Part shown: positions 1 through 57,091 of the stretch, piece by piece
Layout: each line of letters starts with the position of its first letter
How positions within the stretch are numbered: position 1 is the first letter of the stretch
Virus record (IMG/VR): IMGVR_UViG_3300005264_000009
Location: 1-64,000 of that record
Origin: a virus
Strand: one strand, 5' to 3'
Length of the DNA: 64,000 bases
Position numbers and translations under genes: made by a program
The notes under the pieces: generated by a model
Database searches by the model: none
What the model was told of the DNA's origin: nothing
What the model saw: the letters and a program-made list of their open reading frames with translations, nothing else

Positions 1-86
1 TTGGTTTGGTAATAGCTTGGCTTGGCTTGGCAATAGCTGGGCTTGGCTTGGTAATAGCTGGGCTTGGCTTGGCTTGGTAATAGTTG
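1..86. repeat. Tandem pentamer repeat (CTTGG/CTGGG runs punctuated by AATAG)
   Basis: ttggt ttggt aatag cttgg cttgg cttgg c aatag ctggg cttgg cttgg t aatag...; truncated by the window edge. Confidence 0.85.
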
Positions 87-122
87 TTTTAAAAATATTA
101 TATAACAAAGAGGAAGATTAAA

Positions 123-620
123 ATGCATATTTCTAAAAGGAATAAAAATTTAGGGCAAAAAAAAGCTGATGAATTTTTGTATATTCCTTGCAAGAAATGC
201 AATTTTATTTTCAATTTCAATATTTTTAAACACGAGGCAGATGTATCGGCATATGTTATATCCAAAGATGTTGGATATACGGAGCATGTGCAGGCGATGA
301 ATGCTGAGCTATACAATAATTTGGATTCTCAAATGCTATGCGGATTTGGTGAAAATGCCAATTTATTAAAGATAAGTGATATGAAATTAATAATTAATCG
401 ATTGATTGATTTTATTAATTACTTACATAAAAAGTATAGCTTTCATATAATAGATGACTTTTATTTTCGTCCTGTGGATAAGAGTCGTTATGATAGTACG
501 CTATATATTGTACGTCGGATATTGAAAGATCCGCGGTGCATTTACAATGAGTGGAATTTAGAACACTCATATACAGCTACAGATCATGAATTTCATGGGA
601 CGATAGGCATAGTAACATGA
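123..620 (+). CDS. Hypothetical protein
   Basis: 165 aa ORF, GAGGA RBS, overlaps next start (ATGA). Confidence 0.65.
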   Translation: MHISKRNKNLGQKKADEFLYIPCKKCNFIFNFNIFKHEADVSAYVISKDVGYTEHVQAMNAELYNNLDSQMLCGFGENANLLKISDMKLIINRLIDFINYLHKKYSFHIIDDFYFRPVDKSRYDSTLYIVRRILKDPRCIYNEWNLEHSYTATDHEFHGTIGIVT

Positions 621-976
621 GATATTATCACGGTACGAAATGCAAGGGATTGAAATGCTTAGAATCTCTTGACGTATTACGAATGAAGGGGTTATGTCCT
701 TCAGGTAGTACAGATGCGTATCGTGATAATTTTACAGATGCTGTATTTGTTACATCTGATAGAGATGTGGCATTACAGTATGCTGGGTTAGATGGTGTAG
801 TTTATGAGGTTATGCCGATTAATCCAGTTTTATATAGTATAGCATTTGAGGAACGGATGCTATCTGGTGCATTTACTGGAAAGAGTAGATGCTTATTGAA
901 AAAGAAATTAAAAAAATTGAAGAAATGCCGTAATAGTCATTCGAATTATATTTGTGATTATGCGAGCATTTTATAG
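617..976 (+). CDS. Putative ADP-ribosyltransferase-fold protein (Arr/PARP-like)
   Basis: YYHGT ... VFVT ... ALQYAG..GVVYEV pattern typical of small phage ART-fold proteins. Confidence 0.5.
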   Translation: MRYYHGTKCKGLKCLESLDVLRMKGLCPSGSTDAYRDNFTDAVFVTSDRDVALQYAGLDGVVYEVMPINPVLYSIAFEERMLSGAFTGKSRCLLKKKLKKLKKCRNSHSNYICDYASIL

Positions 977-985
977 GAGGAAGTT

Positions 986-1096
986 ATGGGTGATTTTGAA
1001 GTGGAATTTGGGAATATAGTATTTGATGATAGTTTTGGTAGTTTTGAGGAAGAAGTGGAAGAGAATGATTTTGAAATATATGCAACGGAGGAATAA
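986..1096 (+). CDS. 36-aa highly acidic peptide
   Basis: AGGAGG RBS; MGDFEVEFGNIVFDDSFGSFEEEVEENDFEIYATEE, 14 D/E and no K/R. Confidence 0.7.
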   Translation: MGDFEVEFGNIVFDDSFGSFEEEVEENDFEIYATEE

Positions 1097-1194
1097 CGCA
1101 TATATTTTGAAAATAATTTAATTGTTTTATGGTTATGGTGATTGCCAATGTGAAATATCACCAAGTTTATTAATGCACTAATTAGGAGGAAGTT

Positions 1195-1467
1195 ATGCGT
1201 ATTTCAAAAATTAGAACAATGTTAGAAGTGGCAGGTTATGCAATAAACTACAAAAACATTATTGACTGTATCGAAGATGCAGTTACAGATGTTAATGATG
1301 ACGGTACGATTACCGTCTATGGTTGGGACGAAATTTGGCAGGAGCATAAGTGTTATGAGTTTAATTTGGCTGATATAGTACATGGTCGGTTGGTACTTAA
1401 TATGGTGGGTTTTCGGACTGCATTTCAGCGTTGGCTGTTATGGAGTCGTTTGGAGCGAATGAGTTAG
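1195..1467 (+). CDS. Hypothetical protein, paralogue of 9637..10113
   Basis: KIRTMLEVAG..YKNI and GFRTAFQRWLLW match KVKKMLEMAG..FKNI and GFKTSMQRFLLW. Confidence 0.8.
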   Translation: MRISKIRTMLEVAGYAINYKNIIDCIEDAVTDVNDDGTITVYGWDEIWQEHKCYEFNLADIVHGRLVLNMVGFRTAFQRWLLWSRLERMS

Positions 1468-1654
1468 ATTTTGAATTATGCTTTATCATTCGGCATTCTT
1501 GAAAAAGGGTGTCGAATGAGTTTTATTTTTTTATTTAAAGGAATTAGCATTTAGTTAATTTTTTTAAATAAATGAATAAAATAAAAATTAAATCTCAATT
1601 TGAATTTGCATTCGGCATTCTCAAAAAAGGGGGTTTAAAATTTGGAGGATGATT

Positions 1655-1750
1655 ATGAAAGATGAAATTATTGAATTGTTGGAATGCATCGGAACAGTAG
1701 GTGCATTTCTAATGATGGAAGTTTCATTTATCCTTGCGATTGCAGGATAA
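1655..1750 (+). CDS. 31-aa small hydrophobic protein (array cargo)
   Basis: GGAGG RBS after hairpin C; MKDEIIELLECIGTVGAFLMMEVSFILAIAG. Confidence 0.6.
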   Translation: MKDEIIELLECIGTVGAFLMMEVSFILAIAG

Positions 1751-1899
1751 ATGAAACTTGATTCGCATTCGGCATTCTAAGAAAAGGGTGTCGAATGATG
1801 TTTTATTTATTATTTTTTATTATTTTTTATTAAATTCTCAATTTGAGTTTGCATTCGGCATTCTTAGAAAAGGGGGTTTAAAATTTGGAGGAATTGAAA

Positions 1900-2235
1900 A
1901 TGAGTAAATTTGAAAAAATGTTGGAAAAGATGGAAATGAATAAAGTTAATGAAAATTTAACAGTTGAGCATTCTGAATGGGAAAGCAAAACTGGTAGTAC
2001 CATAGCAATGCACATTCAGTGGGAGGGTGCATCTGAGTGGGAAATGGCAGAATTTGATGAATTTTTAAAATGCGGGGATGGAACAGCATCTTGCACAAAC
2101 ACTTATGAAATGATAGATGGGAAGGAAGTTCAAGGATGCTGGGCAACATATCCTTTATTGAAGTGTGTCTCTCAAACGGGATGCACTGGAGTTTTTAAAC
2201 CACCATGTAAATGGTGTTCATATTTGAGAGAATAA
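1900..2235 (+). CDS. Hypothetical protein (array cargo; ExxEFxxF family)
   Basis: GGAGG RBS after hairpin C; shares motif with 3276, 3761 and 17593. Confidence 0.8.
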   Translation: MSKFEKMLEKMEMNKVNENLTVEHSEWESKTGSTIAMHIQWEGASEWEMAEFDEFLKCGDGTASCTNTYEMIDGKEVQGCWATYPLLKCVSQTGCTGVFKPPCKWCSYLRE

Positions 2236-2403
2236 AATATGGTGTATCATTCGGCATTCTTGAAAAAGGGTGTCGAATGATGTTTTATTTTTTTATTTAA
2301 GGGAATTAAATGCTAATTCCTTTAAATAAATGAATAAAAATTAAATTTCATTTTGGGTTTGCATTCGGTGGATTCAAAAAAGGGGATTTAAAAATTGGAG
2401 GAA

Positions 2404-2652
2404 ATGATTATGTTGAATATTATAGCAACCAGAATGGATGACAAAATGCGAGTGCAGATGGTTGGGATTTTGAGCAATGCTAAAGAGGAAAAAAGATTCA
2501 AAGCATTTTGTAAGGGGCAGTTGGTCTATTGGCTGTATGACAAAAATACCAAAAAAGGATATGCCGAGAAAAATCTGTACATAAATGACATTTGGTGCAA
2601 GAAATTGTACTGTGTGAGGGGATGCAGGATTAAGCCTATGCCCTTACCTTAA
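2404..2652 (+). CDS. Hypothetical protein (array cargo)
   Basis: GGAGG RBS after hairpin C; ends just before hairpin A. Confidence 0.8.
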   Translation: MIMLNIIATRMDDKMRVQMVGILSNAKEEKRFKAFCKGQLVYWLYDKNTKKGYAEKNLYINDIWCKKLYCVRGCRIKPMPLP

Positions 2653-2872
2653 ATATGGTTATCATTCGGCATTCTTGAAAAAGGGTGTCGAATGAGTTTT
2701 TGTTGGTTTATTTAAGGGAATTAGCATTCGGTTAATTCCTTTAAATAAATGAATAAAAAAATCTCAATTTGAATTTACATAGTGTATTTTCAAAAAAAGG
2801 GGTTTAAATGGTTTGTTGTGGGATGACCTGGCATTTACGCCGAATAACATGACCACATAATTAAAAAGGAGA

Positions 2873-3094
2873 ATGATTATGATAAATCTATATTCAAGAT
2901 GTTGGACAGAGAATTACATTGAAGGATTTGCAAGAAATATTAAATGTGAAAGGTGTGGGAAAGATGCGAGATGGACGCTACATGGTAAATCAAAAACATT
3001 GCATGATACTTGGACAATATGCAACAAGTGTTGTGAAATGTTTCATAAAGAATATAAACGAAGTATTCCTGCATTTTTAGGTGATGCAGGATAA
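2873..3094 (+). CDS. Small CxxC..CxxC zinc-ribbon-like protein (array cargo)
   Basis: AGGAG RBS; CERC...CNKC. Confidence 0.75.
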   Translation: MIMINLYSRCWTENYIEGFARNIKCERCGKDARWTLHGKSKTLHDTWTICNKCCEMFHKEYKRSIPAFLGDAG

Positions 3095-3275
3095 TTTGGA
3101 TTTGCATTCGGCATTCGGCACTCTTAGAAAAGGGTGTCGAATGATCTTTTGTTTTTTTATTTAAGGGAATTAAAATGTTAGTTCTTTTAAATAAATGAAT
3201 AAAAATTAAATTTCAATTTGGATTTGCATTCGGCATATTCAAAAAAAGGGATTTAAAATTTGGAGGGAATTGATT

Positions 3276-3527
3276 ATGAGTGAAAATCTTTTAAAGAAAA
3301 AAGAATGTTGGTCAAAGTGGAATGTAGGGGTAGGGCATACACTTACCATGCAGATCAACAAAAGAAGGGCAAATACTGCTGAGAATGCAGAGTTTGAGGC
3401 ATTTGCCCTTAAATGTGGAGAAAGTAAGAATGGTAGTACAGGAAAGACATGGGCTGTCTTGAATGTTTTAGACCAATCATATCGGGAGCATTTAGGGAGT
3501 GAATATGACTCCCGATATGATAATTAA
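3276..3527 (+). CDS. Hypothetical protein (array cargo; ExxEFxxF family)
   Basis: GGAGG RBS; ANTAENAEFEAFALKCG. Confidence 0.8.
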   Translation: MSENLLKKKECWSKWNVGVGHTLTMQINKRRANTAENAEFEAFALKCGESKNGSTGKTWAVLNVLDQSYREHLGSEYDSRYDN

Positions 3528-3760
3528 AATTGAGTTTACATTCGGCACTCTTAGAAAAGGGTGTCGAATGCTTTTTATGTTTTATTTTTTTATTTAAGGG
3601 AATTATCACTTGGCATTTAATTCCCTTACATAAGTAAATAAAAATTAAATTCCAATTTGAATTTACATAGTGTATTTTCAAAAAAAGGGGTTTAAATGGT
3701 TTGTTGTGGGAGGACTTGGCATTTACGCCGAATAACATGACCACATAATTAAAAAGGAGA

Positions 3761-4045
3761 ATGATTATGATGACAGAAAAAGAATATGTAATGTGTTGTG
3801 AGATCGTGAAAAACAATAGAGAATGGAACTTATGTGCATACCATTCTAATGATTATAATGCCATGATAATTGAATGGCATGTGGATTATAATAAAAGTTC
3901 AACCGATGAGATTAATGAATTTGAAAGATTCATCAATCTCATTGGGGAGTATAGAGACAGTACCCGTTATCTATGCACATTAATAGATGATGATGATGGG
4001 GAAATGGATTGTGGATGCATAGAGTTCCACATTCCCGATTTTTAA
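3761..4045 (+). CDS. Acidic hypothetical protein (array cargo; ExxEFxxF family)
   Basis: AGGAG RBS; SSTDEINEFERFINLIG. Confidence 0.8.
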   Translation: MIMMTEKEYVMCCEIVKNNREWNLCAYHSNDYNAMIIEWHVDYNKSSTDEINEFERFINLIGEYRDSTRYLCTLIDDDDGEMDCGCIEFHIPDF

Positions 4046-4050
4046 AAGAT

Positions 4051-4100
4051 GAAAAGCCTTGTGGCATTTGCTGCAGGGCTTTTCGTGTTTTCGTTTTTAT
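4051..4100 (+). terminator. Intrinsic terminator-like hairpin (repeated at 6436-6485)
   Basis: GAAAAGCCTTGTGGC-ATTT-GCTGCAGGGCTTTTC followed by T-rich tail. Confidence 0.7.
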
Positions 4101-4176
4101 ATTGCCAGAAAATGGTGTCGATGGCTACCTATTGGAAAATGCCATCATTTTATTTCAAATTTAGGGGATTTGAACT

Positions 4177-4269
4177 ATGAATGCTTTTGAAGACATAATG
4201 ATATGTGCTACAAATTCTGTAGCATTTATTTTTATCTTTGTTCTCATTTTGTTCTATTTTGGGGCATAA
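4177..4269 (+). CDS. 30-aa putative membrane peptide
   Basis: AGGGG RBS; MNAFEDIMICATNSVAFIFIFVLILFYFGA. Confidence 0.55.
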   Translation: MNAFEDIMICATNSVAFIFIFVLILFYFGA

Positions 4270-4345
4270 TGAGAACAGGGGTTTAAAGGTTTTGATGGCT
4301 ACCTATGGAAAATGCCATCATTAAAATTTTATCGGAGGAATTATT

Positions 4346-4522
4346 ATGAGTTTTTTTGGCGGAGTGGCTGAATGGGCAGATGCTACAACACCATCTGTTG
4401 AATTACCATCTCATGAATGCCCTTGTTGTGAACTAAATGTTTATGATGAGGATTTTCGTGAGATGGGAAGTGATGAACCAGTTTGTAAGCATTGTTTTGA
4501 TGCTTTACAAAGTGATGAATAA
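4346..4522 (+). CDS. 58-aa acidic CxxC..CxxC protein
   Basis: GGAGG RBS; CPCC...CKHC. Confidence 0.7.
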   Translation: MSFFGGVAEWADATTPSVELPSHECPCCELNVYDEDFREMGSDEPVCKHCFDALQSDE

Positions 4523-4584
4523 ATCTCATTTTGGGAATGCATTCGGTATTCCCAAAAAAAGGGTTTTAAAAATTGGAGGAAATT

Positions 4585-4914
4585 ATGTGTATCAAAACAG
4601 ATGTTAATGAAATTTTTGCAAATCTTCCCATTCCTGAAACAAAGAATGAGGAAGATATATTCGGTGCGACAATAATGTTGCATCGTATAATTAATGAAAA
4701 TGGTACTGATATAAATATGGATGAAATATGGAGTATGGAAAGAATGATACTGCCATTGATATGCAGATTACATAATAATGAGAAGTTGTTCTTTGATGGT
4801 TATTATGCCATTAAGGAATGCCTCAAAAAACACATTCAGGTACAGAATGCTAAACTGGTATTGGAAAATGCTAAACTGGTATTGGAAAATGCCAAAAAAG
4901 CATTAAATAAATAA
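4585..4914 (+). CDS. Hypothetical protein (array cargo)
   Basis: GGAGG RBS after hairpin C; 21-nt tandem repeat gives NAKLVLE x2. Confidence 0.8.
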   Translation: MCIKTDVNEIFANLPIPETKNEEDIFGATIMLHRIINENGTDINMDEIWSMERMILPLICRLHNNEKLFFDGYYAIKECLKKHIQVQNAKLVLENAKLVLENAKKALNK

Positions 4915-4977
4915 ATTAAATCTCATTTTGGGAGTGCATTGTGTGTTGCCAAAATGAGATTTAAAAATTTGGAGGAA

Positions 4978-5316
4978 ATGATTATGGGTAAGAGATTCAA
5001 AAAAATGATTTTAATTGGTGTTATGGGATTGAGCTTGGCATTTCCAAGTACATTAGTGTCGTATGCAGATGAGCTTGTAAATGTAATTCTGCTGAAAGAT
5101 GCTTATAAAATTGAAGATGAATATGGTAAAACAGTTACCATAATTGAATGTTATGAAAAGAGAATGATACAGGGTCATATGTATCATAAGGAAATGGAAT
5201 TGCTTGGTTTTGGTAAACAGGCATTAATGACAGAAGAGAAGAAAAAAGGGATGAGGATTGAATGTATTATTGAGAAAAGTAATCATTCATATAGTATATT
5301 AAAAATCATAAAATAA
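4978..5316 (+). CDS. Putative secreted or membrane-anchored protein
   Basis: GGAGG RBS; signal-peptide-like start KRFKKMILIGVMGLSLAFPSTLVSYA. Confidence 0.7.
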   Translation: MIMGKRFKKMILIGVMGLSLAFPSTLVSYADELVNVILLKDAYKIEDEYGKTVTIIECYEKRMIQGHMYHKEMELLGFGKQALMTEEKKKGMRIECIIEKSNHSYSILKIIK

Positions 5317-5395
5317 ATGGATTAATGGTTTTGATGGTTTTGATGGCTACCAATTTTAAAATGCCATCATAAATTCAAATTTAGGGGATTTGAAA

Positions 5396-5704
5396 ATGCG
5401 TTTTGAGTTTACAGGAAAAACCAAAATGATGGGTAATGTCATTTTGAAACAAATTTATGATCCACGTTCCATTAAAGTTGGCGGATGGATTGAAAAGAGA
5501 GAAAACCTGATTGAGAATGCATGGATTTCTGGGAATGCCTGCATTTTTGGAAATGCGATAGCATCTGGTTTTTCTCAAATTTCTGGAAATGCAAGTGTTT
5601 CTGGAAATGCTACCATTTCAGGTGATGCTGTTGTTAGAAATATGATAGTGAATGGTAGTACGGTAATAAATGGTTCAAAAATATTTAAATGTAGGAGGAG
5701 TTAA
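5396..5704 (+). CDS. Left-handed beta-helix hexapeptide-repeat protein (YdcK-like), short
   Basis: FTGKT..GGWIE..NL.. then (G)NAxIx repeats. Confidence 0.8.
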   Translation: MRFEFTGKTKMMGNVILKQIYDPRSIKVGGWIEKRENLIENAWISGNACIFGNAIASGFSQISGNASVSGNATISGDAVVRNMIVNGSTVINGSKIFKCRRS

Positions 5705-5754
5705 AATGACTTGTTATGTTGCTAAATAAAACTTTAAAAAAATAAAAAAATAGC

Positions 5755-5783
5755 TTGACTTCCCTTGTATAGTGTGCTATAAG
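5755..5783 (+). promoter_or_regulatory. sigma70-type promoter
   Basis: TTGACT-17-TATAAG with extended TG; near-identical copies at 10283 and 11975. Confidence 0.8.
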
Positions 5784-5914
5784 GAAGCCAAACAATAAAA
5801 TTTATTGGTTATACTAATTGACCAGCATTCTCAAATGTGGGAAGCAAATAATATTATTAGAAAAGGGTATTAATTCCCTTGCATTTACGCAAAAAATTAA
5901 AATTAAAAAAGGAA

Positions 5915-6430
5915 ATGATTATGAAATTTTTAGCCGTTTATACATCAAAAGAGGCAATCGAAACAGGCAAATGTGCAATGTTAAGACTTTTAGAATGGGA
6001 TGATTTTTATCCCATGCACAACAAATTATTTGGAACAGGTCAAGTTTACACAGCACCCAATGATAGCCGATATTATTGGGAGAAAAATGGTAAAAATGTT
6101 GTTGAATTAGAGTTAAATGAGATGAACGGTCAAAGTGTTGCATGGCATTCATGCGGTGGAAATAGTATAGCGTACCAACATACATATATAAATGGTGTGG
6201 AGTGTATGCTTGTATGCATTAAATCAAGGAGGCATGGCATTCCTTGCAGTGCAATGAAGGGTTTTGAACCATCGGAGGTCATTTATTATAAAAGTAGTGC
6301 CGAATGGTGGGGTCCATTTGACACGCTGGATGATCATCCAAATGATAAAGAACTTTTTGAACCACCTTCCGAATGGGAGGATGGTGATGAATATAGCGAT
6401 CCAAAGAAAGAGAGAATGAGTCGCTTTTAA
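5915..6430 (+). CDS. Hypothetical protein
   Basis: AAGGA RBS, ATGATTATG start like neighbouring genes; followed by terminator. Confidence 0.75.
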   Translation: MIMKFLAVYTSKEAIETGKCAMLRLLEWDDFYPMHNKLFGTGQVYTAPNDSRYYWEKNGKNVVELELNEMNGQSVAWHSCGGNSIAYQHTYINGVECMLVCIKSRRHGIPCSAMKGFEPSEVIYYKSSAEWWGPFDTLDDHPNDKELFEPPSEWEDGDEYSDPKKERMSRF

Positions 6431-6435
6431 AAATG

Positions 6436-6485
6436 AAGAGCCTTGTGGCATTTGCCACAGGGCTTTTCGTGTTTTCGTTTTTATT
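6436..6485 (+). terminator. Intrinsic terminator-like hairpin
   Basis: GAAGAGCCTTGTGGC-ATTT-GCCACAGGGCTTTTC followed by T-rich tail. Confidence 0.7.
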
Positions 6486-6535
6486 TAAAGGAATTAATTA
6501 TGAATGTAAAATTCACTGGAAAGTTTAAAAGGAGA

Positions 6536-7261
6536 ATGGTTATGAATTTTAATTTTACAGGAAAAACAATGGAAGTAGCATACACAACAGTTCACCAGAT
6601 TGAAAGAGATGGTGAAATTGGTGGATGGATTGAACATATACATAATATCAGTGGTAATGGGTGGGTTACTGATGATGCTTGTGTGATGGGCAATGCTTGT
6701 GTGATGGGTGATGCCGTTGTAAGTGGTAAAGCCATCATAATGGACAGTGCCATCATTAAAGGCAATGCACATGTTATGGGTAATGTGTGCATTAAACATT
6801 ATGCAGTCATCGATGAATTTACATATATAAAAGATCATTGTGTAATAGGTGGTAATGCCATTATACAGGGAAATGCTATTATTGAAGGAAATACATTTAT
6901 TTCTGACAATGTTGAAGTTTTTGGTATGGCAAGAATTTCAGGAAACAATCATATAAATGACAAAGTGAAAATTCATGGGCATTCTCAAATTTTAGGTCAT
7001 GCTTGTATTTTTGAAAATGCAAGAATTTTTGAAAATTGTACAATTCGGGAACAAGCATCTGTTTCTGGGAATGCAAAAATACAAGGAAATGCTATTATTG
7101 AAGGAAATGCAGAAATAAACGATGAAAGTATCGTTTCAGGAATTGCTAAAGTACACGGAAATGCCAAAGTATCAGGGCATTCTTATGTGTCAAAAAATTC
7201 ACACATATTTGGAAGTGCTATTGTTAAAAACGAAAATATTATGGGTAAAGTAATGTTTTAA
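6536..7261 (+). CDS. LbH hexapeptide-repeat protein
   Basis: FTGKTME..GGWIE then many GNAxI/V hexapeptides. Confidence 0.88.
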   Translation: MVMNFNFTGKTMEVAYTTVHQIERDGEIGGWIEHIHNISGNGWVTDDACVMGNACVMGDAVVSGKAIIMDSAIIKGNAHVMGNVCIKHYAVIDEFTYIKDHCVIGGNAIIQGNAIIEGNTFISDNVEVFGMARISGNNHINDKVKIHGHSQILGHACIFENARIFENCTIREQASVSGNAKIQGNAIIEGNAEINDESIVSGIAKVHGNAKVSGHSYVSKNSHIFGSAIVKNENIMGKVMF

Positions 7262-7345
7262 ATAGTGATTTAAAATTATGGTTTTATAATGGTTATGGTG
7301 GTTACCTATTTTAAAATGCCACCAAAAAAATAATTTAAAAGGAGA

Positions 7346-8071
7346 ATGATTATGAGTTTTACATTTACAGGAAAAACTATGGAAGTGAATGGCAGAAAAG
7401 TACGACAAATTGAAAAAGATGGCATTATAGGAGGGTGGATTCAGAAAAGAGAAAACCTAATTGAGAATGCATGGGTAAGTGAAAATGCATGTGTATATGG
7501 TAAAGCTGTAATTTCTGGAAATGCTGTAATTTCTGGAAATGCACTTGTTAGTAATAGTGCAATGGTTATGGGAAATGCTTGTATTAGAGAGAATGCTTGC
7601 ATTAAACATTATTGTACTATTTGCGATAGTGCTGTAATTTCGGGGGATGCTGTAATAGGTGATAATGCACATATAGCAGGATATACGATTATTTGTGCAG
7701 ATGCATATGTATTCGGGGATGTAGAAATATCAGGTAATGCAAGAATTTTGGGGAATGCACATATTACTGGGAATGCTATTATTCGTGGTAATGCAAATAT
7801 TTTAGATTATGCAAAAATATTTGGAAATGCTGAAATTTTTGAAAATGCAAAAGTATTGGGAAATGCAGATGTTTCGGGGTGTTCAAAAATATTTGGGTAT
7901 GCCGTTATTGATGGTAATGCTGTTATATCTAATAATGCAATAATTTCTGGGGCATCTCATATTTATGGGGATGCCGAAGTTTCTGGGCATTCTTATGTGT
8001 CAAGAAACTCATTTATATTTGGTAGTTCCAAAATAAAAAATGAAGTTATTTTAGATAAAACAATGGGTTAA
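7346..8071 (+). CDS. LbH hexapeptide-repeat protein
   Basis: Paralogue of 6536 (shared VSGHSYVS.NS.IFGS end). Confidence 0.88.
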   Translation: MIMSFTFTGKTMEVNGRKVRQIEKDGIIGGWIQKRENLIENAWVSENACVYGKAVISGNAVISGNALVSNSAMVMGNACIRENACIKHYCTICDSAVISGDAVIGDNAHIAGYTIICADAYVFGDVEISGNARILGNAHITGNAIIRGNANILDYAKIFGNAEIFENAKVLGNADVSGCSKIFGYAVIDGNAVISNNAIISGASHIYGDAEVSGHSYVSRNSFIFGSSKIKNEVILDKTMG

Positions 8072-8158
8072 AATAACTTCTAAAATGACTTCTAATATTA
8101 GGTAAATGGTTAAGGTGGTTACCATTTTAAAATACCACCAAATTAATTTTAAAGGAGA

Positions 8159-9028
8159 ATGATTATGCTTTATGCTTTTACTGGAAAAACAATGATTCAT
8201 CATGGTGTATTATTACAACAAATTATTAAAACCAAAACAAATGAAATTGGAGGATGGATTGAGGGCGAACATAACCTCCTTGGTGATGCTTGGGTAGATG
8301 ACCAAGCAAAAGTATGGGGAAATGCTCGAATTGATGGGTCAGCATTAATTTTTGGTAATGCTTGGGTTTTTGGGAATGCTAAAATAACAGGGAATGCCCA
8401 AATTTTTGAGAATGCCCAAGTTTTTGGGAATGCAAGAATTTTTGAAAATGCGAATATTTTTGGATGTGCAAGAGTAACAGATGCACTTGTTGATGGTAAT
8501 GCCATCATTAATGGTAATGTGAATGTAATGAGTAAAGCCGAAATTTGTGAAAATGCAAAAATTTCGGGTAATACATTAATTCAAGAAAATGCTTACGTGG
8601 GTGGGCATGCAAATATATTTGGAAATGCAAAAATACAAGGAAATGCCTTTGTAGATGGGCATGCAAACGTATTTGAAAGTGCATTGGTTTTTGGAAATGC
8701 AAGAGTTGGCGGGAAATCCTATGTATGTGGAGATACCAAATTGACAGGTAGATGTAATGTAAGAGGTAATGCTTTTATTACAGGAAAAGCTACTATTTAT
8801 GGTGATTCAACTATTGCAGAAAATGCTCGTGTAATGGGAAGTGCAAGAATTGGTGAAAACGCTTTTATTTATGAGAATGCCGTAATTTTTGGAAACGCTC
8901 ATATTAAAGGTGATGCAAGGGTTTTCGGAACAGTAAATGTGTTTGGTAATACTATTATTATAAATAAAGTATTAAGTGGTAATTGTAACATTTCAAATGA
9001 TGCAGATTTAGATTCATACAATTTCTAA
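8159..9028 (+). CDS. LbH hexapeptide-repeat protein
   Basis: FTGKTM..GGWIE then GNAxIF repeats. Confidence 0.88.
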   Translation: MIMLYAFTGKTMIHHGVLLQQIIKTKTNEIGGWIEGEHNLLGDAWVDDQAKVWGNARIDGSALIFGNAWVFGNAKITGNAQIFENAQVFGNARIFENANIFGCARVTDALVDGNAIINGNVNVMSKAEICENAKISGNTLIQENAYVGGHANIFGNAKIQGNAFVDGHANVFESALVFGNARVGGKSYVCGDTKLTGRCNVRGNAFITGKATIYGDSTIAENARVMGSARIGENAFIYENAVIFGNAHIKGDARVFGTVNVFGNTIIINKVLSGNCNISNDADLDSYNF

Positions 9029-9092
9029 ATCAAATATCATATTTTATAATTTTAAATGGGCTGGCATCCCGAACTGCCGAAAGGATAATAAT

Positions 9093-9569
9093 ATGAATAA
9101 AGTAAAAGAATTATATGATAGAGAAGGCATAACCGAAGAGGAAATACATGAGGAGTGCGATATTATGGGTGAATGTAGTGCATGGTTTTTCGATCATGTA
9201 TTACCAGATGTATTATCAAAAGCTGGATTAGAATTTTCTAACATTAATTTTCATACAAAAATTAGAATTGATGTTAGAACAGGTAAAATTGATGTACATC
9301 AATATGCAGATGATATACAATCTGCTGATGATCCTTTTTTCATTACACTTGTGTCGGTTGAACCATTTAGACAAAGTTTTGATGAAATAAAAATTTGGTT
9401 GAAAGAAAACATTGAAGATGAATATTACAAACATCTTTCCGAAGATGAACAAAAAGTATTTTTTCATTCCTGTATGCTTATGGAACAAGATAATATATGG
9501 GAAGATTGGGAATATTGGAAAGCGAAAATAAAAGAGTATTATGCTGATTTAAATTCTGATAATTTCTAA
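9093..9569 (+). CDS. Acidic hypothetical protein
   Basis: 158 aa, D/E rich, AAGGA RBS. Confidence 0.75.
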   Translation: MNKVKELYDREGITEEEIHEECDIMGECSAWFFDHVLPDVLSKAGLEFSNINFHTKIRIDVRTGKIDVHQYADDIQSADDPFFITLVSVEPFRQSFDEIKIWLKENIEDEYYKHLSEDEQKVFFHSCMLMEQDNIWEDWEYWKAKIKEYYADLNSDNF

Positions 9570-9636
9570 ATCAAATATATCACATTTTATATTTTTAAAC
9601 TGGGCTGGCATCCCGAACTGCTGAAAGGTTTTTAAA

Positions 9637-10113
9637 ATGAATACATTAAAAGTAAAAAAGATGTTAGAAATGGCTGGTGAGGCAATGCACTTTAAAAACA
9701 TTTTGCAAAATTTAGAAAACATCACATTTGATACATGTGCAGAAGATAAATATGAAGGTGATGCATACTATACCATTATGATAAATGGTTATAGTGATTA
9801 TTTCGATCAAATGCAGGAGGTTTATTTCAACAAGGAAAATGTGGCTATGGGATTAGGGATTTTACATAAATCAGGTTTTAAAACATCTATGCAAAGATTT
9901 CTACTTTGGCAATACATTGAAAGAAATGAAAGAAATGGAAATATTTGCACCGAAAAATCAAATACACATAGGATTAAAAAATGCAAAAATTGTAAAAAAT
10001 ATTTTTGTGATGAATGTGGTAATGTGTACAAAAAAACAAAAATTCCTGAAAATGTTGAAATGTTGGATGAAAAAGGCATTTGTAATAAATGTTGGAATAA
10101 AATAAAAAAATAA
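9637..10113 (+). CDS. Paralogue of 1195 with added C-terminal Cys-rich domain
   Basis: Shared N-terminal motifs; CKNC..CDEC..CNKC tail. Confidence 0.8.
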   Translation: MNTLKVKKMLEMAGEAMHFKNILQNLENITFDTCAEDKYEGDAYYTIMINGYSDYFDQMQEVYFNKENVAMGLGILHKSGFKTSMQRFLLWQYIERNERNGNICTEKSNTHRIKKCKNCKKYFCDECGNVYKKTKIPENVEMLDEKGICNKCWNKIKK

Positions 10114-10199
10114 ATTTCATTTTATGTTTTACATTTGATTTTGTAAAAAATGTTGTTAAATGTATTTTGTATTTTTTTATTTTTTTATTAAAATAGTAC

Positions 10200-10311
10200 T
10201 TGACAAAACTGAATTTTTTTGCTATAAGTGAAGTTTGGTGTAAATTTACAGATATTTTTTTATTTTTTTATTAAAATAGTGCTTGACTTCCTTTGTATAG
10301 TGTGCTATATA
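10200..10311 (+). promoter_or_regulatory. Two tandem sigma70-type promoters
   Basis: TTGACA-17-TATAAG (10200) and TTGACT-17-TATATA (10283), each behind a TTTTTTATTTTTTTATTAAAATAGT UP-like tract. Confidence 0.8.
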
Positions 10312-37101: not shown

Positions 37102-39801
37102 ATGGAAATAATTAAAGTTAATATTACAGAAGAAAAAAGAATAACACTTGGTTTTATATTAAGTAATAGGTTTCATAGAAATGTACATGACTTCTTTGAA
37201 TTAGATTATATTACAAATGTTTATTTAAAACAAATAAGTTCTCTTTGTATTGAATTTTTTAATGAATTTCAAGATGCACCGAAAAAAGCTATAAAAGATA
37301 TTTTTTTTGATTATAGCAAAAATTTAGAAAGTGCAGAAAAAGAAAACATGAAAAATATTTTGCGTGAATTATACACACAAATTTCTGATGGTATTAATGT
37401 TGATTATTATATTCAAGTAGCAAAAGAATATTGTCAAAAACGATTTGTACAAATCCACATAAACAATATGCAGTTGTTAGATGAAAAAGAGGATTATGAA
37501 CAGGCTGAACAGTTAATATTACAATATAACACATTTGCTGATAAAATGAGTGAGGGTGTCATCCTTGATATGGATGATGATGATGTTTATGAAAGATTAT
37601 TTGATAAATTAGTAAATGAAGATTCTAACTTTTTTAAATTTCCAGGTGCGGTTGGTAAATATTTAGGTAATATGAAAAGAGGTGATGTTGTAGGTTACGT
37701 AGCACCTCAAAAACGTGGGAAATGCGTATCTGAAAATTCATTGATAACATTATCAGATGGTACATTAAAAACTATAAAAGAAGTAGTACAAAAAAAGATA
37801 GTAAATGTTTTATGTAAAAATGAAAAAGATAAAATTGTAAAAGGGAAAGTTATTGATTGGATGTATTGTGGGGAAAAAACAGAATACGAGGTTACAACAA
37901 AATCAGGTAGAAAAACAAAAGTAGCAATAGATCATAAATTTTATACACCAATGGGGTATAAGAAATTGCAAGATTTACAAGTGGGGGATAGAGTTGGCTT
38001 GTGCAAACATAAACCTTGTTATTCTCATAAAATAGTAAAAAAATCAGAATTACGCATTTTAGCCTATTTACTTGCTGATGGTCATTTAGGCGAAGGTATG
38101 AGTTTCACAAAACATTCACCTAATGTAATGGCTGATTTTTGTAAAAATTTACATGAAACAGATAAATACACAATATTTGATAATGGTTGTATTTTAAGAT
38201 TACATAGAACACAAACATACAGATTTATACAAAAATTAGGTTTGCAATATAAATTATCGGCTGATAAATTTATTCCTGATTTTGTTTTAAAAAGTAATAA
38301 TAAAAGTATATCCGAATTTTTAAATGTTTTATTTACTTGTGATGGTTCTATTTGGAAAGATCGAAATTGTGTACAAATTGATTATAGTACAAAAAGTTTT
38401 ATGCTTTGTAATCAAGTAGTATCTTGTTTGTCAAGATTCAATATATTTGGAAAAATACGTGAAAGGATAGTTAATAACACAAAATATTATGAAATTGTAT
38501 TGTCAAGCAATAAATCTATTATTGCTTTTATGAAACATATTGGTTTTTCTTTTCATAAAGCAGAAAAAGCAAAGAAATTAACATTTGAATTGGTAGATAA
38601 ACGTGATTACATAGATGTAATACCACATGAGTATGTTCTAAAATATGGGAAGGAATTACGTGAATCTGGAAAAGGATTTAATAATGAGTCATTTAGAATA
38701 GCTTTTAATACTGGAAAACATGTATCAAAAAAAGCATTTAAAAGAACTGTTGGAGATCAACCTGTATTACACACTGATCTATTATGGGATTCAATAAAAA
38801 GTATAAAAAAGTTAGGTAAAGTTAAAATGTACGATTTAGAAGTTGCAGAACACCATAACTTTATTTCCGATTCTTTTATTGTACATAATAGTTTCTGGTT
38901 GATAGAACACTTAGCACAAGCCGTAGCACAAAAGAGAAAAACAGTATTTTGGTCTGTAGAAATGACAGAGGTAGAAATTTTTATGCGTGTATTAAAAGCA
39001 TTTTATCCTATGATAAATATGGATGAAGCAAGAGAGTTTTCAGACAACCATGAATATCCCTTTCCTGAATTGGATTGTAAGTTAAATCAAAATGGTGATT
39101 GTAATAATAGAGAATCAACAGTTATTGTTTTGGATGGGGATGATATGCCTATGTTTGATAAAAAACATGTACCTTGTAAAAAATGTAAGGGTACAGATAA
39201 ATACAAATATACTTTATATACATCTTATATGAAAAGACCTATACTTGAAAAGTTTGAGGGTTATAAAATAAAAGAAAAATTTAAGCGTTTATTTAAAAAG
39301 TATATAAAAATAAGTGTACATCCTAAATATTCATTATCATATCAAAACATGATTTCTGATTTAAGTAAATTAGCAAGAACAAAGAATTTTGTTCCTGATA
39401 AACTTATAATAGATTATATTGATATTTTAAAAATAGATTCATCATTTGATGATTATAGATTAGTAGATGAACAATGGAAATTATTAGCACAATTAGCTGG
39501 TGAAACAAAAACATTAGTTGTAACAGCAACACAAGCAAATAAAGCAGGGTTAGACTCAACAAGATTAAACAGTTCACATCAAGGGGGTTTTTATGGTAAA
39601 AGTAGGCATGTAAATTTAATGGTGGGTATAAACCAAACAGCAGAACAAAAAGAACAAGGAATAATAGAATTAGGAATTACAGATAGACGTGAGGGTTTCT
39701 TTTCTGAAAATGAATCATGTTTAGTTTTACAAGATTTAAAAACAGGACAAGCCCACTTAGAAGGATTAATTGTATATAACACAAAGGGGAAATATATATG
39801 A
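37102..39801 (+). CDS. Replicative DnaB-like helicase with intein
   Basis: APQKRGK|S Walker A split by intein; SVEM, IDYID, TATQAN. Confidence 0.88.
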   Translation: MEIIKVNITEEKRITLGFILSNRFHRNVHDFFELDYITNVYLKQISSLCIEFFNEFQDAPKKAIKDIFFDYSKNLESAEKENMKNILRELYTQISDGINVDYYIQVAKEYCQKRFVQIHINNMQLLDEKEDYEQAEQLILQYNTFADKMSEGVILDMDDDDVYERLFDKLVNEDSNFFKFPGAVGKYLGNMKRGDVVGYVAPQKRGKCVSENSLITLSDGTLKTIKEVVQKKIVNVLCKNEKDKIVKGKVIDWMYCGEKTEYEVTTKSGRKTKVAIDHKFYTPMGYKKLQDLQVGDRVGLCKHKPCYSHKIVKKSELRILAYLLADGHLGEGMSFTKHSPNVMADFCKNLHETDKYTIFDNGCILRLHRTQTYRFIQKLGLQYKLSADKFIPDFVLKSNNKSISEFLNVLFTCDGSIWKDRNCVQIDYSTKSFMLCNQVVSCLSRFNIFGKIRERIVNNTKYYEIVLSSNKSIIAFMKHIGFSFHKAEKAKKLTFELVDKRDYIDVIPHEYVLKYGKELRESGKGFNNESFRIAFNTGKHVSKKAFKRTVGDQPVLHTDLLWDSIKSIKKLGKVKMYDLEVAEHHNFISDSFIVHNSFWLIEHLAQAVAQKRKTVFWSVEMTEVEIFMRVLKAFYPMINMDEAREFSDNHEYPFPELDCKLNQNGDCNNRESTVIVLDGDDMPMFDKKHVPCKKCKGTDKYKYTLYTSYMKRPILEKFEGYKIKEKFKRLFKKYIKISVHPKYSLSYQNMISDLSKLARTKNFVPDKLIIDYIDILKIDSSFDDYRLVDEQWKLLAQLAGETKTLVVTATQANKAGLDSTRLNSSHQGGFYGKSRHVNLMVGINQTAEQKEQGIIELGITDRREGFFSENESCLVLQDLKTGQAHLEGLIVYNTKGKYI
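37723..38889 (+). mobile_element. Intein with LAGLIDADG endonuclease (389 aa)
   Basis: CVSENS start, DH block B, LAYLLADG and LFTCDG, IVHN|S end. Confidence 0.93.
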
Positions 39802-51213: not shown

Positions 51214-53526
51214 ATGTCATTACAACATGATTACAGACCAAAATCTTTTAAAACTTTTGTTGGTAATAAAAGTACTATTGAATCAATCCAAAGTGTAATT
51301 AAAAAGAACCCACCAAGAGCTTTTTTAATTACTGGAAATTCGGGATGCGGCAAATGTGTATCAGATGATACTTATATTTTTTCAGAATTAGGTATGAAAA
51401 CAATAAAGTCATTTGCACCTAATGCTCCTTTAGGTTTTTCTGATTTACAAATAAGTGTGGCTTCTAAAAATGAAATAGATACCACATCACATTTTTATAA
51501 AGAAGAAAATTGTGAAACTAAAAAAATTGTAACAGAATATGGGTATGGTGTTACAGGAACATATAAACACCCTGTGCTTGTTTATGATGTTGATAAAGCA
51601 GAACATGTGTATAAACATTTAAAAGATGTAAAAACAACAGATTATACATGTATAAACAGAGATATTAATTTATTTTCAAAAAGTAATTCTCCTTTATACT
51701 TTTCTTATGTGAAAGATAAAATGGATGGGAATGGACACACATTCAGATCACCTTGTGAAGTTAATTGTGCTTTATCAGCTATATTAGGGTATTTAATAGC
51801 TAATGGATCACAAAACAAAAACAAAAACAAATCGAGTGGTTTTTTATTTTCATCAAATTCAAGTAAAATACAAGCTGATTTTGTAAATAAATGTGATGAA
51901 TTACACGTAGATGGTTGTACAACATCTGTAAGTAATAGTAATAGTAATATATGTGGTGTATGTAGAGTAAGTAACACTCAATTTGCTACATTTATAAATA
52001 CACTATTTAAAACAGGATTCCAAACAGCAAGGTATAAAGTAGTTCCTAATTGTATTTTAGAATCAAAGAAAGAAATGCAAAGAATATTTTTAAGAACACT
52101 TTTTGATTGTGATTCTTACTTTAGTGGTATGGTTTTTGAATATTATACTGCATCCGAAGTACTTGCTAAACAAGTTCATTTAATATTATTAAATTTTGGT
52201 ATAGTTTCTAAATTAAAACCAAAAACAGATGTTAAAATCAAAACAAAAGTCTATGATCATACTTATTGGACTGTGGCTGTTGGGTCACAAAATTTGGATT
52301 TTTTATGGAAAACTATTTTATTTGATAGTTTAAAATATGACAAATTAAAAAAAGTAATAAGAAATCCTAATAACGACATTATACCAAATTTAGGTTTGTA
52401 CATTAAAACTTATATTTCAAAATATTTAAAAGTGAATAAAAGTGGTAAATTTAAAATAGGTGGTAAATATTTTTCTAATAAATTATTTGTTGGTGCAAAT
52501 ATATATGATGGTATGACATTTGAAAGATTGGAAAAATTAATAGATAATTTTTCTAAAATGCCTGAATTAAAAGAATTATCTATTTTAAAACAACAATTAA
52601 GTGACATATACACAAATCATTACTATTATGATAAAATAAAAACTATATCAGAGGATAAAAAACAAACAGTGTATGATTTTACAATACCTAAAACACACTC
52701 ATTTATTGGTGGTGGGATTGTGAATCATAATTCAACTTTGTCATATATTATTGCCAAAGCATTAGGTTGTTCCAAAATGGATTTTGTTAAAAAAGATGCA
52801 TCATCTGATAGAACGATTGCAGGCATAAAAAAATTAAAAGAAGATTGCCAATTTTTACCAATGGTGGGCAAAAAGAAAGTTTTTCTTTTAGAAGAGTTTA
52901 ATAATGTACCAAAAATATCACAACAGGCATTATTAGATACTTTAGAAAATCCACCAAAACATGTACACTTTATAATTTGTACAACCAACCCTGAAAACTT
53001 ATTAGATACAGTAGTACGTAGATGCCATAATTATAAATTACTACCATTAAAAGATGCACAAGTAAGAAAAAACATTCTATTACGTACAATTAAAAAAGAA
53101 AAAGTAACAACCGTTCCTGATACCGTATTAGATAAAATTATTGACTTATCTGATGGATCACCAGGAATTGCTTTAAAGTACTTAGATCTTGTAATAGACC
53201 AAACAGATGAAAAAAAAGCTATAAGTGTTTTACAAAGTGCAGGTGCAGATAATACAGAGATAATTGAAATTTGCAGAGTTCTTTGTCAATTTCAAATGAG
53301 TGCTAAAAACCGATGGTATAAATTAAAGAATTTATTGAAAAAGTTTGATGGTGATCCTGAAAGTTCAAGAAGAGCTGTATTAGGTTATTTAACCAAAGTT
53401 ATACTTAATTCAGATGAGGAAGATGTTGTTTTTATGGCAGAAAAATTTGAAAAGAATTTTTTTGATTCAGGAAAAAATGGTTTTATTATAGCTTGTAAAA
53501 AAGCTGTCATGGAGATAAGTGAATGA
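51214..53526 (+). CDS. Clamp loader AAA+ subunit (DnaX/RFC-like) with intein
   Basis: YRPKSF..FVGN, GNSGCGK|S, LLEEF, QQALL..LENPP, RRC. Confidence 0.9.
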   Translation: MSLQHDYRPKSFKTFVGNKSTIESIQSVIKKNPPRAFLITGNSGCGKCVSDDTYIFSELGMKTIKSFAPNAPLGFSDLQISVASKNEIDTTSHFYKEENCETKKIVTEYGYGVTGTYKHPVLVYDVDKAEHVYKHLKDVKTTDYTCINRDINLFSKSNSPLYFSYVKDKMDGNGHTFRSPCEVNCALSAILGYLIANGSQNKNKNKSSGFLFSSNSSKIQADFVNKCDELHVDGCTTSVSNSNSNICGVCRVSNTQFATFINTLFKTGFQTARYKVVPNCILESKKEMQRIFLRTLFDCDSYFSGMVFEYYTASEVLAKQVHLILLNFGIVSKLKPKTDVKIKTKVYDHTYWTVAVGSQNLDFLWKTILFDSLKYDKLKKVIRNPNNDIIPNLGLYIKTYISKYLKVNKSGKFKIGGKYFSNKLFVGANIYDGMTFERLEKLIDNFSKMPELKELSILKQQLSDIYTNHYYYDKIKTISEDKKQTVYDFTIPKTHSFIGGGIVNHNSTLSYIIAKALGCSKMDFVKKDASSDRTIAGIKKLKEDCQFLPMVGKKKVFLLEEFNNVPKISQQALLDTLENPPKHVHFIICTTNPENLLDTVVRRCHNYKLLPLKDAQVRKNILLRTIKKEKVTTVPDTVLDKIIDLSDGSPGIALKYLDLVIDQTDEKKAISVLQSAGADNTEIIEICRVLCQFQMSAKNRWYKLKNLLKKFDGDPESSRRAVLGYLTKVILNSDEEDVVFMAEKFEKNFFDSGKNGFIIACKKAVMEISE
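51355..52731 (+). mobile_element. Intein with LAGLIDADG-like endonuclease (459 aa)
   Basis: CVSDDT start, TxxHP block B, LGYLIANG and LFDCDS, VNHN|S end. Confidence 0.93.
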
Positions 53527-57073: not shown

Positions 57074-57091
57074 TATTTAAAATATACACTT

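Follow-up and report, generated by a model that had tools for sequence, protein, structure and literature searches.

An array of small genes punctuated by a repeated multi-hairpin cassette was found close to the left end of the virus record IMGVR_UViG_3300005264_000009, at positions 1468–4983 of the window (the whole stretch analyzed, that is, the first 64 kb of this linear, 87,209-nt IMG/VR record of 28% G+C, whose completeness is estimated by CheckV at ~63%). The array is a real, well-defined, repeated RNA-level boundary cassette built from up to three hairpins, here named A, B, and C. Every copy of these elements is on the coding strand, in one orientation, in a single 3.5-kb run, and between a stop codon and the next Shine–Dalgarno (SD) sequence. 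Because the coding-strand copies fold far better than their complements owing to G-U pairs, the array elements most likely act as RNA. The reading favored here, to which about an even chance is given, is that the array serves as gene-boundary punctuation, with attenuation at A, RNase III-type processing at B and C, and protective hairpins at the message ends.

Repeated Hairpin Modules Separate Small Genes

A sequence-only reading of the window had described a multi-hairpin repeat between small genes at 1486–4965, and the repeat finder, motif counts, and a covariance model all recovered the repeats there. Six composite spacers of 187, 149, 174, 226, 181, and 239 nt were delimited within 1468–4983 (149–239 nt as measured, 150–250 nt as first estimated), and two short spacers of 62–63 nt were present besides. 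One small gene per interval had been claimed as well, and single genes of 31, 111, 80, 71, 83, and 92 aa (31–111 aa) indeed lie between the composite spacers, followed by genes of 30, 58, 109, and 110 aa. The modules are combined as A-B-C in five units, two of which carry an extra leader, as A-C in the second unit (U2), which lacks B, and as C alone in U7 and U8, at 4520 and 4916, where solitary copies had been correctly reported.

The repeat finder returned a C-containing repeat in eight copies of 72 nt (63–100% identity), an A-containing repeat in six copies of 64 nt, B in five copies, and a 24-nt motif common to the A flanks and C in 11 copies. Further, GCATTCGGCA, with at most one mismatch allowed, matched 15 times in 64 kb vs. 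0.94 expected, and none of 100 shuffled sequences reached 15; 11 of the 15 matches were plus-strand copies inside 1486–4548. The C tail motif gave 17 matches vs. 2.0 expected, and a C pattern matched the 87-kb record seven times in forward and never in reverse orientation. With the covariance model of C, exactly eight copies were detected in 87 kb (E = 2.8e-19 to 3.0e-13), while the next plus-strand match had an E of 0.2. A terminator scan of 12 kb found 14 sites vs. 3.9 ± 2.2 expected, and all six A copies were included.

The Rfam search proposed along with the sequence-only reading gave no match at the gathering score in the window or the remaining 23 kb, self-cleaving ribozymes, riboswitches, and leaders included, and at E up to 1 only two microRNA-precursor matches, taken as chance, appeared in 1–10200. 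The idea of a ribozyme or other known RNA was dropped on this result. The cargo proteins were unrelated among themselves, except for one weak pair (1900–2235 with 3276–3527, E = 2e-5). When 10 of them were compared with PHROGs and Pfam, only sub-threshold family matches were obtained, so the label of host-takeover or anti-defense genes stays a guess resting on position and size.

Anatomy of Hairpins A, B, and C

Hairpin A is predicted to fold into a stem of 13–18 bp with 2–4 G-U pairs and a 4–6 nt purine loop, which differs between copies (GAAA, AGAA, or AAGAAA). Its energies were −15.6 to −18.7 kcal/mol for the 32-nt core, and a T tract begins 0–3 nt past the stem. The six copies, on the plus strand like all hairpins below, lie at 1486–1519 (A1; terminator-like, 15 bp, three G-U pairs, T tract after it), 1766–1797 (A2; 13 bp, 6-nt loop), 2245–2282 (A3; from the terminator scan and the fold), 2662–2695 (A4; identical to A1 and A3), 3112–3143 (A5), and 3539–3570 (A6). 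Judged by their letters, all six would qualify as intrinsic terminators, having a G+C-containing stem and then a U tract on the transcribed strand.

Hairpin B is 57–64 nt long and has 24–28 predicted pairs and a loop of 5–12 nt; the T tract of A opens its 5′ arm, and the A-rich block AAATAAATGAATAAAA is its 3′ arm. B had been noticed before, but its length was underestimated, as the T tail of A is part of the pairing. Its copies are B1 at 1520–1582 (28 predicted pairs, with the T tract of A1 as 5′ arm), B3 at 2283–2339 (25 pairs), B4 at 2698–2758 (27 pairs, GCATTCGG in the loop), B5 at 3147–3204 (26 pairs, five G-U), and B6 at 3580–3643 (24 pairs, 12-nt loop).

Hairpin C, of 47–51 nt, is predicted to form 17–22 pairs in two stacked helices: an outer helix of 9 bp (TTAAATCTC/GGGGGTTTAA), an A-rich asymmetric internal loop, and an inner helix of up to 12 bp closed by a 5-nt loop. 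The same two-helix fold was predicted in all eight copies, and it is longer than first described, since the outer helix encloses the hairpin seen earlier. The copies and their downstream genes are C1 at 1588–1638 (two-helix fold with loop ATTCG; 31-aa gene 1655–1750, whose ATG follows AAAATTTGGAGG), C2 at 1830–1881 (111-aa gene 1900–2235), C3 at 2341–2391 (21 pairs, seven G-U; 80-aa gene 2410–2652), C4 at 2759–2805 (loop variant ATAGT), C5 at 3206–3256 (83-aa gene 3276–3527), C6 at 3645–3695 (loop variant ATAGT), C7 at 4520–4568 (109-aa gene 4585–4914), and C8 at 4916–4964 (110-aa gene 4984–5316). In 6/8 copies the end of C lies 5–6 nt 5′ of GGAGG, so the earlier statement that C ends just 5′ of GGAGG-ATG in most units held; U4 and U6, however, insert a structured leader of ~70 nt first, at 2806–2878, where it separates C4 from the AAGGAG-ATG belonging to the 71-aa gene 2879–3094, and at 3696–3766 before the 92-aa gene 3767–4045.

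A and C have ~30–45 nt in common; sharing had been noted, but not merely CATTCGGCA is shared. A further block, TTTAAATAAATGAATAAAAATTAAAT, is kept in 5/6 full units, and U2 is without this AT block. As modeled, both B and C would offer the geometry of an RNase III substrate, that is, about two helical turns, in which helices may be stacked and an internal loop may intervene. The A-B-C portion ends with a terminator of a different, stronger type (4049–4086, 17 bp), of which a second copy lies at 6433–6470.

Other leader hairpins were observed near the array. A second family, at 1122–1155, 4107–4166, 4281–4340, 5329–5388, 7284–7343, and 8099–8132, stands 13–16 nt 5′ of the ribosome site of six other genes and shows compensatory changes (GATGGC...GCCATC, GGTGGT...ACCACC, and GGTGAT...ATCACC). 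Genes 9093 and 9637 have a third type, GGGCTGGCATCCCGAACTGCCGAAAGG, ahead of them; hairpins in the leader 5′ of the SD seem to be usual in the left arm of this phage. Array modules were also reused piecemeal at 5790–5920 and 6478–6499: the leader of gene 5921 (5790–5920) carries fragments both of the A, B, and C modules and of the U4/U6 leader (GCATTCTCAAA, TTAGAAAAGGGT, TTAATTCCCTT, and GCATTTACGC), and the B 5′ arm TTTATTTAAAGGAATTA forms the ribosome-site region of gene 6500 (6478–6499), after the 6433 terminator.

Folding Is Strand-Specific and Pairing Is Conserved in C

Whole units folded with −34.6 to −74.4 kcal/mol on the plus strand vs. −13.6 to −47.4 kcal/mol on the minus strand. For the five A-B-C units, z-scores against 60 shuffles per strand were −6.2 to −9.1 on the plus strand and −1.9 to −5.4 on the minus strand. 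The advantage of the plus strand is due to G-U pairs, and the earlier argument that G-T pairs favor the plus strand is therefore upheld.

Pairing in C was evaluated across the eight copies. Paired cells amounted to 85%, vs. 29–64% when the partners were slid, and double-sided changes were found in 5/21 pairs, all of them among the 12 pairs of the inner helix. The compensatory pair quoted in the sequence-only reading was correct and corresponds to C3/C7. In C8, the 3′ arm is changed from GGGG to GAGA and from the A-rich stretch to AATG, while the 5′ arm is unchanged; these changes convert wobble pairs and the internal loop into a continuous 16-bp duplex, the lower stem of this copy. The covariation pattern and the C8 variant would thus be fair, not strong, evidence of selection on the RNA fold, because the eight copies are closely related and come from one genome.

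Predicted Terminators Without Recognizable Promoters

A stereotyped promoter class was recognized in this phage, consisting of an A tract, nnTnCTTGAC, a 17-bp spacer, and TGnTA, with 16 plus-strand copies from 5755 to 64393. They lie at 5755 (5755–5784, strong sigma70-type, with none upstream within the window), 10200, 10283, 11975, 13915, 14842, 28193, 34384, 40779, 40866, 49455, 50010, 58756, 59696, 62642, and, in record coordinates, 64393. In a weight matrix built from these 16 strong promoters, they scored 27–41 bits, while the next best plus-strand site in the genome scored 10.3 and the top site of the shuffled genome 9.8. No promoter of this strong class was present in 1–5700, where the best site scored −2.1, which agrees with the earlier claim of no sigma70 promoter inside the repeats. 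Between 6431 and 10150 just one site went past the first filter of the scan, with a matrix score of −7.9. A generic consensus scan found 68 promoter-like sites vs. 72.7 expected, i.e., no excess.

A weak sigma70-like match (TCGGCA, 18 nt, TAAAAT; 9/12) overlaps C in 3/8 copies, but it is not conserved, as other C copies have TCGGTG, TAGTGT, or TTGTGT at −35, and it would place the RNA start inside the SD. The first three bases of C7 are the stop codon of gene 4346–4522, and C8 starts 2 nt past the stop of gene 4585–4914, so these two copies must be co-transcribed with the gene upstream. Given the lack of strong-class promoters in 1–5700 and the two C copies that abut a stop codon, the most probable view is that C belongs to the transcript of the gene upstream and does not act as a strong-class promoter.

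By these sequence criteria, the array would contain six good terminators and no recognizable promoter. The same arrangement recurs elsewhere: the terminators at 6433 and 57074 (~57090) are followed by genes without promoters. Since these strong terminators also precede promoterless genes, terminator read-through seems to be a general habit of the phage.

Several observations were made in passing on promoters and terminators. Bacteroidetes-type and Campylobacter-type promoter motifs, judged by eye, were rejected for misfits of spacing and sequence; the phage uses the canonical TTGAC-17-TGnTA. Three promoter sub-groups have near-identical spacers (10283 and 11975; 13915 and 14842; 58756 and 62642), which suggests duplicated promoter cassettes or added factor-binding boxes. 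The record opens within an imperfect tandem repeat of GGCTTGGCTTGG T/C AATAGCT units (1–80), which may explain why the assembly ends there, and a weak promoter-like site (TTGGTA, 16 nt, TATTAT) comes after it, at 74–101; the sequence further left would determine how the array is transcribed. Just 5′ of the strong terminator at 57074, the end of gene 56303–57073 (56923–57015) carries a 15-nt coding tandem repeat, TTTAGATGATGATGA-like, in at least six copies.

Mosaic Units and the Search for Relatives

The modules of the array group differently from one another. The A hairpins of U5 and U6 show 94% identity, whereas A is identical in U1, U3, and U4; over hairpin C, U1/U2 (90%), U3/U5 (88%), and U4/U6 (87%) go together, and B groups U3 with U5 (91%). 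C4 together with its leader makes a 132-nt block with 95% identity to 3640–3771, so that the C regions of U4 and U6 match up to the start codons of unrelated genes. In U5 and U6, the 5′ flank of A copies the C 5′ arm of the same unit: in U5 (3095–3111, ahead of A5) 19–22 nt are identical, and the flank of A6 resembles the C6 5′ arm. In all, cassettes present near-identical blocks of 24–130 nt 5′ of unrelated genes.

This reticulate pattern is what would be expected from exchange between identities of 24–130 nt, and the A/C hybrids resemble what unequal exchange of A with C would yield; a UvsX-like recombinase is among the genes of the phage. Because near-identical blocks precede unrelated genes and A and C share ~30–45 nt, it is indirectly supported that general homologous recombination may spread, homogenize, and reshuffle the cassettes. 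Of the recombination shuffling proposed earlier, this general mode, which is also that of the promoter early stem-loop (PeSL) elements of T4-type phages, is thus indirectly backed by the mosaic modules, while the site-specific, integron-like mode is not. Six-frame searches of the 87-kb record (~63% complete) gave no match to the tyrosine recombinase family Phage_integrase (PF00589), with a control positive in 14/14 genomes, nor to Resolvase (serine recombinase), with a control positive in 13/14 genomes; the remark that no integrase is visible thus holds for the whole record, and the recombinase that was to be sought elsewhere in the genome did not appear in it. No paired attC core sites (RYYYAAC ... 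GTTRRRY) were seen when the units were aligned by eye. Promoterless, co-oriented single-gene cassettes, a trait of integrons, are present, but they are generic to any operon.

Relatives of the element were searched for at several levels. By blastn, 1400–5000 had no match among GenBank phages. In IMG/VR contigs, where a search had been recommended, the exact A pattern gave 0 matches and a degenerate C pattern gave four single matches in unrelated contigs, taken as chance, so no convincing match was obtained. The motif shared by A and C matched twice in JGI metagenome contigs, once in coding sequence of 43% GC and once in a contig of 66% GC, both by chance, and an A inverted-repeat pattern gave 11 single matches across unrelated phyla in 185,579 species genomes, likewise taken as chance. 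The C model reached unconvincing best E values of 0.008–0.33 on the whole records of 4/7 relatives found through the DNA polymerase. The three longest relatives showed no dispersed intergenic repeat like that of the array, and a 13-mer census of them returned coding tandem repeats only. The neighboring proteins 5921–6430 and 9637–10113 had no relatives in IMG/VR.

A Proposed Mechanism and Its Alternatives

In the reading of the array as gene-boundary punctuation, the small ORFan genes would be transcribed rightwards, in one transcription unit or in few, beginning beyond the record or at its far left end. After each gene, A and its U tract would act as an intrinsic terminator or attenuator and also as a 3′ protective hairpin. 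In RNA that reads through, the U tract would pair with the A-rich stretch downstream to form B, a duplex of 24–28 bp and of the size cut by RNase III-type enzymes. C would then be at or near the new 5′ end and shield the downstream message from 5′ exonuclease; alternatively, as with the early sites of T7, C itself may be cut, namely in its A-rich internal loop. On balance, each gene would obtain a message of its own, its ends defined and protected, and transcription would drop step by step along the array.

According to passages of one source, the typical substrate of Escherichia coli RNase III is two helical turns long, stacked short helices can serve, and internal loops limit cutting to one strand, so that protective hairpins remain (PMC1540722). 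Bacterial mRNAs are described as stabilized by 5′ and 3′ hairpins in part of another (PMC7509114). The RNA-processing or attenuation cascade offered in the sequence-only reading fits the missing strong-class promoter, the C copies that abut a stop codon (2/8), the strand-specific folding, and the RNase III-like helix lengths, and such a cascade is what we infer.

Several points weigh against it. No RNA run was found among the public sequencing runs that match the sequence. No RNase III gene was detected in 87 kb (~63% of the genome). An invariant loop and motif sequence, GCATTCGG(C), is common to A and C and hints at sequence-specific recognition, beyond generic cutting of double-stranded RNA. 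The covariation of C, for which a check had been called for, includes the double-changed pairs above, yet the shuffle control was passed just modestly, as 22–27 of 500 shuffles reached the observed scores, and the outer helix had 0/9 double changes and one-sided changes only. The element occurs in one genome, in eight, six, and five closely related copies of C, A, and B, so conservation may reflect recent duplication and not selection. Moreover, with six good terminators in series and no promoters, the distal genes would be starved of transcription unless the terminators leak or are overridden, which weakens a pure processing model.

A bolder version of gene-boundary punctuation, which we regard as quite unlikely, holds that the units are promoterless, RNA-only cassettes that bring to each gene its own stop (A), cutting site (B), and start-of-message cap (C), with the 30–45 nt shared by A and C serving as a built-in handle for recombination and perhaps also for the docking of a phage factor able to override A. 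If this is true, genes would be excised, duplicated, and swapped as RNA-insulated units and their expression timed by controlled read-through, a PeSL-like mobility logic without promoters.

The array may instead be a PeSL analogue, in which A ends the transcript and a cryptic promoter in B-C restarts it, read by a host polymerase that the phage has modified or by a polymerase of the phage or its virion whose gene lies in the missing 37%. That each gene is followed by a terminator is most sensible if each gene restarts, and the layout of stop codon, stem-loop, AT-rich tract, SD, and ATG around ORFans is that of PeSLs, whose stem-loops, in the passages describing them, often lie inside the promoter and contain G-T pairs (PMC2839356). 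The incompleteness of the record (63% complete), the retention of TTTAAATAAATGAATAAAAATTAAAT in most full units, and the weak 9/12 match over three C copies also speak for it. However, the very stereotyped promoter class of the phage itself is not present in the array, the weak match varies between copies and would put the RNA start within the SD, U2 has no conserved AT block, and non-coding DNA is entirely missing upstream of C7 and C8. A fixed −35/−10 spacing across B is ruled out by its variable loop (5–12 nt), and the G-U-dependent pairing of the outer C helix argues for a transcribed 5′ arm. No sigma factor was found in 87 kb, and a search for a T7-type polymerase was empty, though its control was silent as well. 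A cryptic promoter is judged unlikely. The serial terminators between promoterless genes could instead be overcome by timed antitermination, the A copies blocking the array until a phage factor or C RNA makes the polymerase termination-resistant, as in lambda N/nut or HK022 put, with the shared motif GCAUUCGGCAUUCU or the purine-rich A loop as recognition site. Four genes (123–1467) upstream of the first terminator could encode the factor, the GAAA/AGAA loops on a G-rich stem recall boxB, the motif common to A and C goes beyond pairing needs, and other terminators of the phage precede promoterless genes too. Yet the A loops vary (GAAA, AGAA, AAGAAA), which makes a loop-specific reader unlikely; known nut and put sites occur once per operon, not once per gene; the upstream proteins match no family; and B is left unexplained. 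This account as a whole, recognition site included, is held to be very improbable.

The repeats may also be functionless, that is, recent tandem duplications or a selfish modular intergenic repeat tolerated between dispensable genes; BOX and Correia/miniature inverted-repeat transposable elements are examples of modular intergenic repeats. The modular composition (A-B-C in five units, A-C in one, C alone in two), the high identity between copies with modest covariation, the module fragments in the gene 5921 leader and after the 6433 terminator, and the lack of the element in any relative examined would all fit. The single orientation, the confinement to one 3.5-kb run, and the exact placement from stop codon to SD do not, nor do the one- and two-sided changes that keep pairing on the transcribed strand, and neither terminal inverted repeats nor target duplications were seen at the array repeats; we consider lack of function improbable. 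The sequence-only reading had also inferred an integron-like array, in which top-strand hairpins would serve as single-stranded DNA sites cut and joined by a site-specific recombinase that captures and shuffles cassettes. Promoterless, co-oriented single-gene units with imperfect hairpins of strand-specific pairing, in an incomplete record, gave this idea its appeal. It is now barely credible: Phage_integrase and Resolvase were missing from 87 kb (~63% of the genome) while their controls were positive (14/14 and 13/14 genomes), no attC-like conserved core sites were seen in the units, the strand that folds is the coding strand, each junction has three different hairpins, among them a canonical terminator and C, which is fused to the ribosome-binding site, and homologous exchange over identities of 24–130 nt accounts for the mosaic.

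Comparison with Known Systems

The earlier statement that the array resembles no described system was too strong, as PeSLs, the RNase III sites of T7 and SP82, and the start-associated sequences (SAS) with their extended forms (ESAS) come close in logic. PeSL cassettes of T4-type phages are defined, in the passages concerned, by a strong sigma70 promoter, and shuffling of genes by homologous recombination, with no dedicated recombinase, has been proposed for them (PMC2839356; PMC4122927). The array shares with them, as described there in part, a terminator or attenuator stem-loop with G-T pairs and an AT-rich tract, and ORFan genes flanked in a plastic region (PMC2839356). The terminator stem-loop also occupies the position it has in a PeSL, flanking ORFans and lying after the stop codon of one gene and ahead of the SD-ATG of the next. 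In contrast, the strong sigma70 early promoter with an upstream AT-rich region that PeSLs have was not found in the array (best score −2.1 vs. 27–41), the array has the two extra RNA hairpins B and C, and no sequence similarity exists; nor is the phage T4-like, its DNA polymerase (PolA) having at most 25% identity to any isolate.

Phages T7 and T3 (R0.3–R1.3) and the Bacillus phages SP82 and SPO1 have RNase III processing sites between their early genes. Like the array hairpins, the T7 and SP82 sites are intercistronic hairpins on early polycistronic RNA, one per gene boundary, of about two helical turns and often with an internal loop, and the copies within one phage resemble each other. Protective hairpins stand at the message ends after cutting, which in the array would be a parallel inferred from structure. 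T7 junctions, in contrast, have no terminator each, the long duplex B of the array is made from the terminator's own U tract, unlike in T7 and SP82, and the array has no Rfam or sequence match.

The SAS/ESAS of Cluster K mycobacteriophages are, in the passages that introduce them, a conserved ribosome-site block 5′ of the start codons of a non-structural gene subset, in one orientation, with imperfect inverted repeats and a variable spacer upstream of about half of them, and they are suspected to work at the level of RNA or translation (PMC3203893). Unlike the array, they are dispersed over half the genome and conserved across the phage cluster, and those passages describe no terminator module alongside (PMC3203893). 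Sequences, host phylum, and GC content differ as well. A keyword search of open-access literature text found no description of a promoterless A-B-C design. Three traits of the array are unusual: serial terminators with no promoters, a duplex for which the terminator supplies its U tract, and homology between A and C.

The Phage and Its Neighboring Genes

The plus strand carries all large reading frames up to ~72 kb, and presumed late genes are on the minus strand at the right end of the record. Replication and recombination genes include a DnaB-like helicase, a family A DNA polymerase, a clamp, a clamp loader, a UvsX-like recombinase (55198–56319), and an RNA ligase. The best full-length matches of the DNA polymerase include SPO1-like phages of Bacillus and Lysinibacillus, and a search with this polymerase gave seven uncultured relatives with 51–59% identity. 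By gene content and DNA polymerase relationships, the source is, as far as sequence can tell, a large virulent-type phage of a low-GC host. No tRNA was found in the window, and six-frame searches of the 87-kb record (~63% complete) found no sigma-70 region 2 domain and no RNase III domain; a T7-type RNA polymerase had no match in it either, in a search whose control was positive in no genome.

In public DNA runs, the share of sampled words of the region was 0.98 in a marine sediment run, possibly the source sample, and 0.56 and 0.28 in two runs of two other studies (hydrothermal vent metagenomes); five rows with small shares and one with next to none were disregarded.

Other features of the record were noted. 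Four tandem paralogous genes at 5396–9028 encode hexapeptide/beta-solenoid (bactofilin-like, YdcK-like) repeat proteins of 102–289 aa with an N-terminal FTGKT motif in common. A longer paralogue of gene 1195–1467, which directly precedes the first terminator, lies 8 kb downstream (9637–10113; 31% identity over 96 aa, E = 5e-15) and has a Cys-rich, zinc-finger-like C-terminal tail (weak FYVE match). Further, phrog_9666 matches an internal stretch of the helicase, clamp-loader, and UvsX-like proteins (37102–39801, 51214–53526, and 55198–56319), which suggests inserted intein-like or homing elements in these three replication and recombination genes.

Implications

Phage early regions contain most of the as yet undescribed host-takeover and counter-defense genes, and how these are expressed and exchanged is understood for few model phages. 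If confirmed, the array would carry the concept of PeSLs, as regulatory cassettes by which genes are also shuffled, over to a very distant lineage of phages and to a design acting purely at the post-transcriptional level, and its terminator, processing site, and leader hairpin would be portable parts for synthetic operons.

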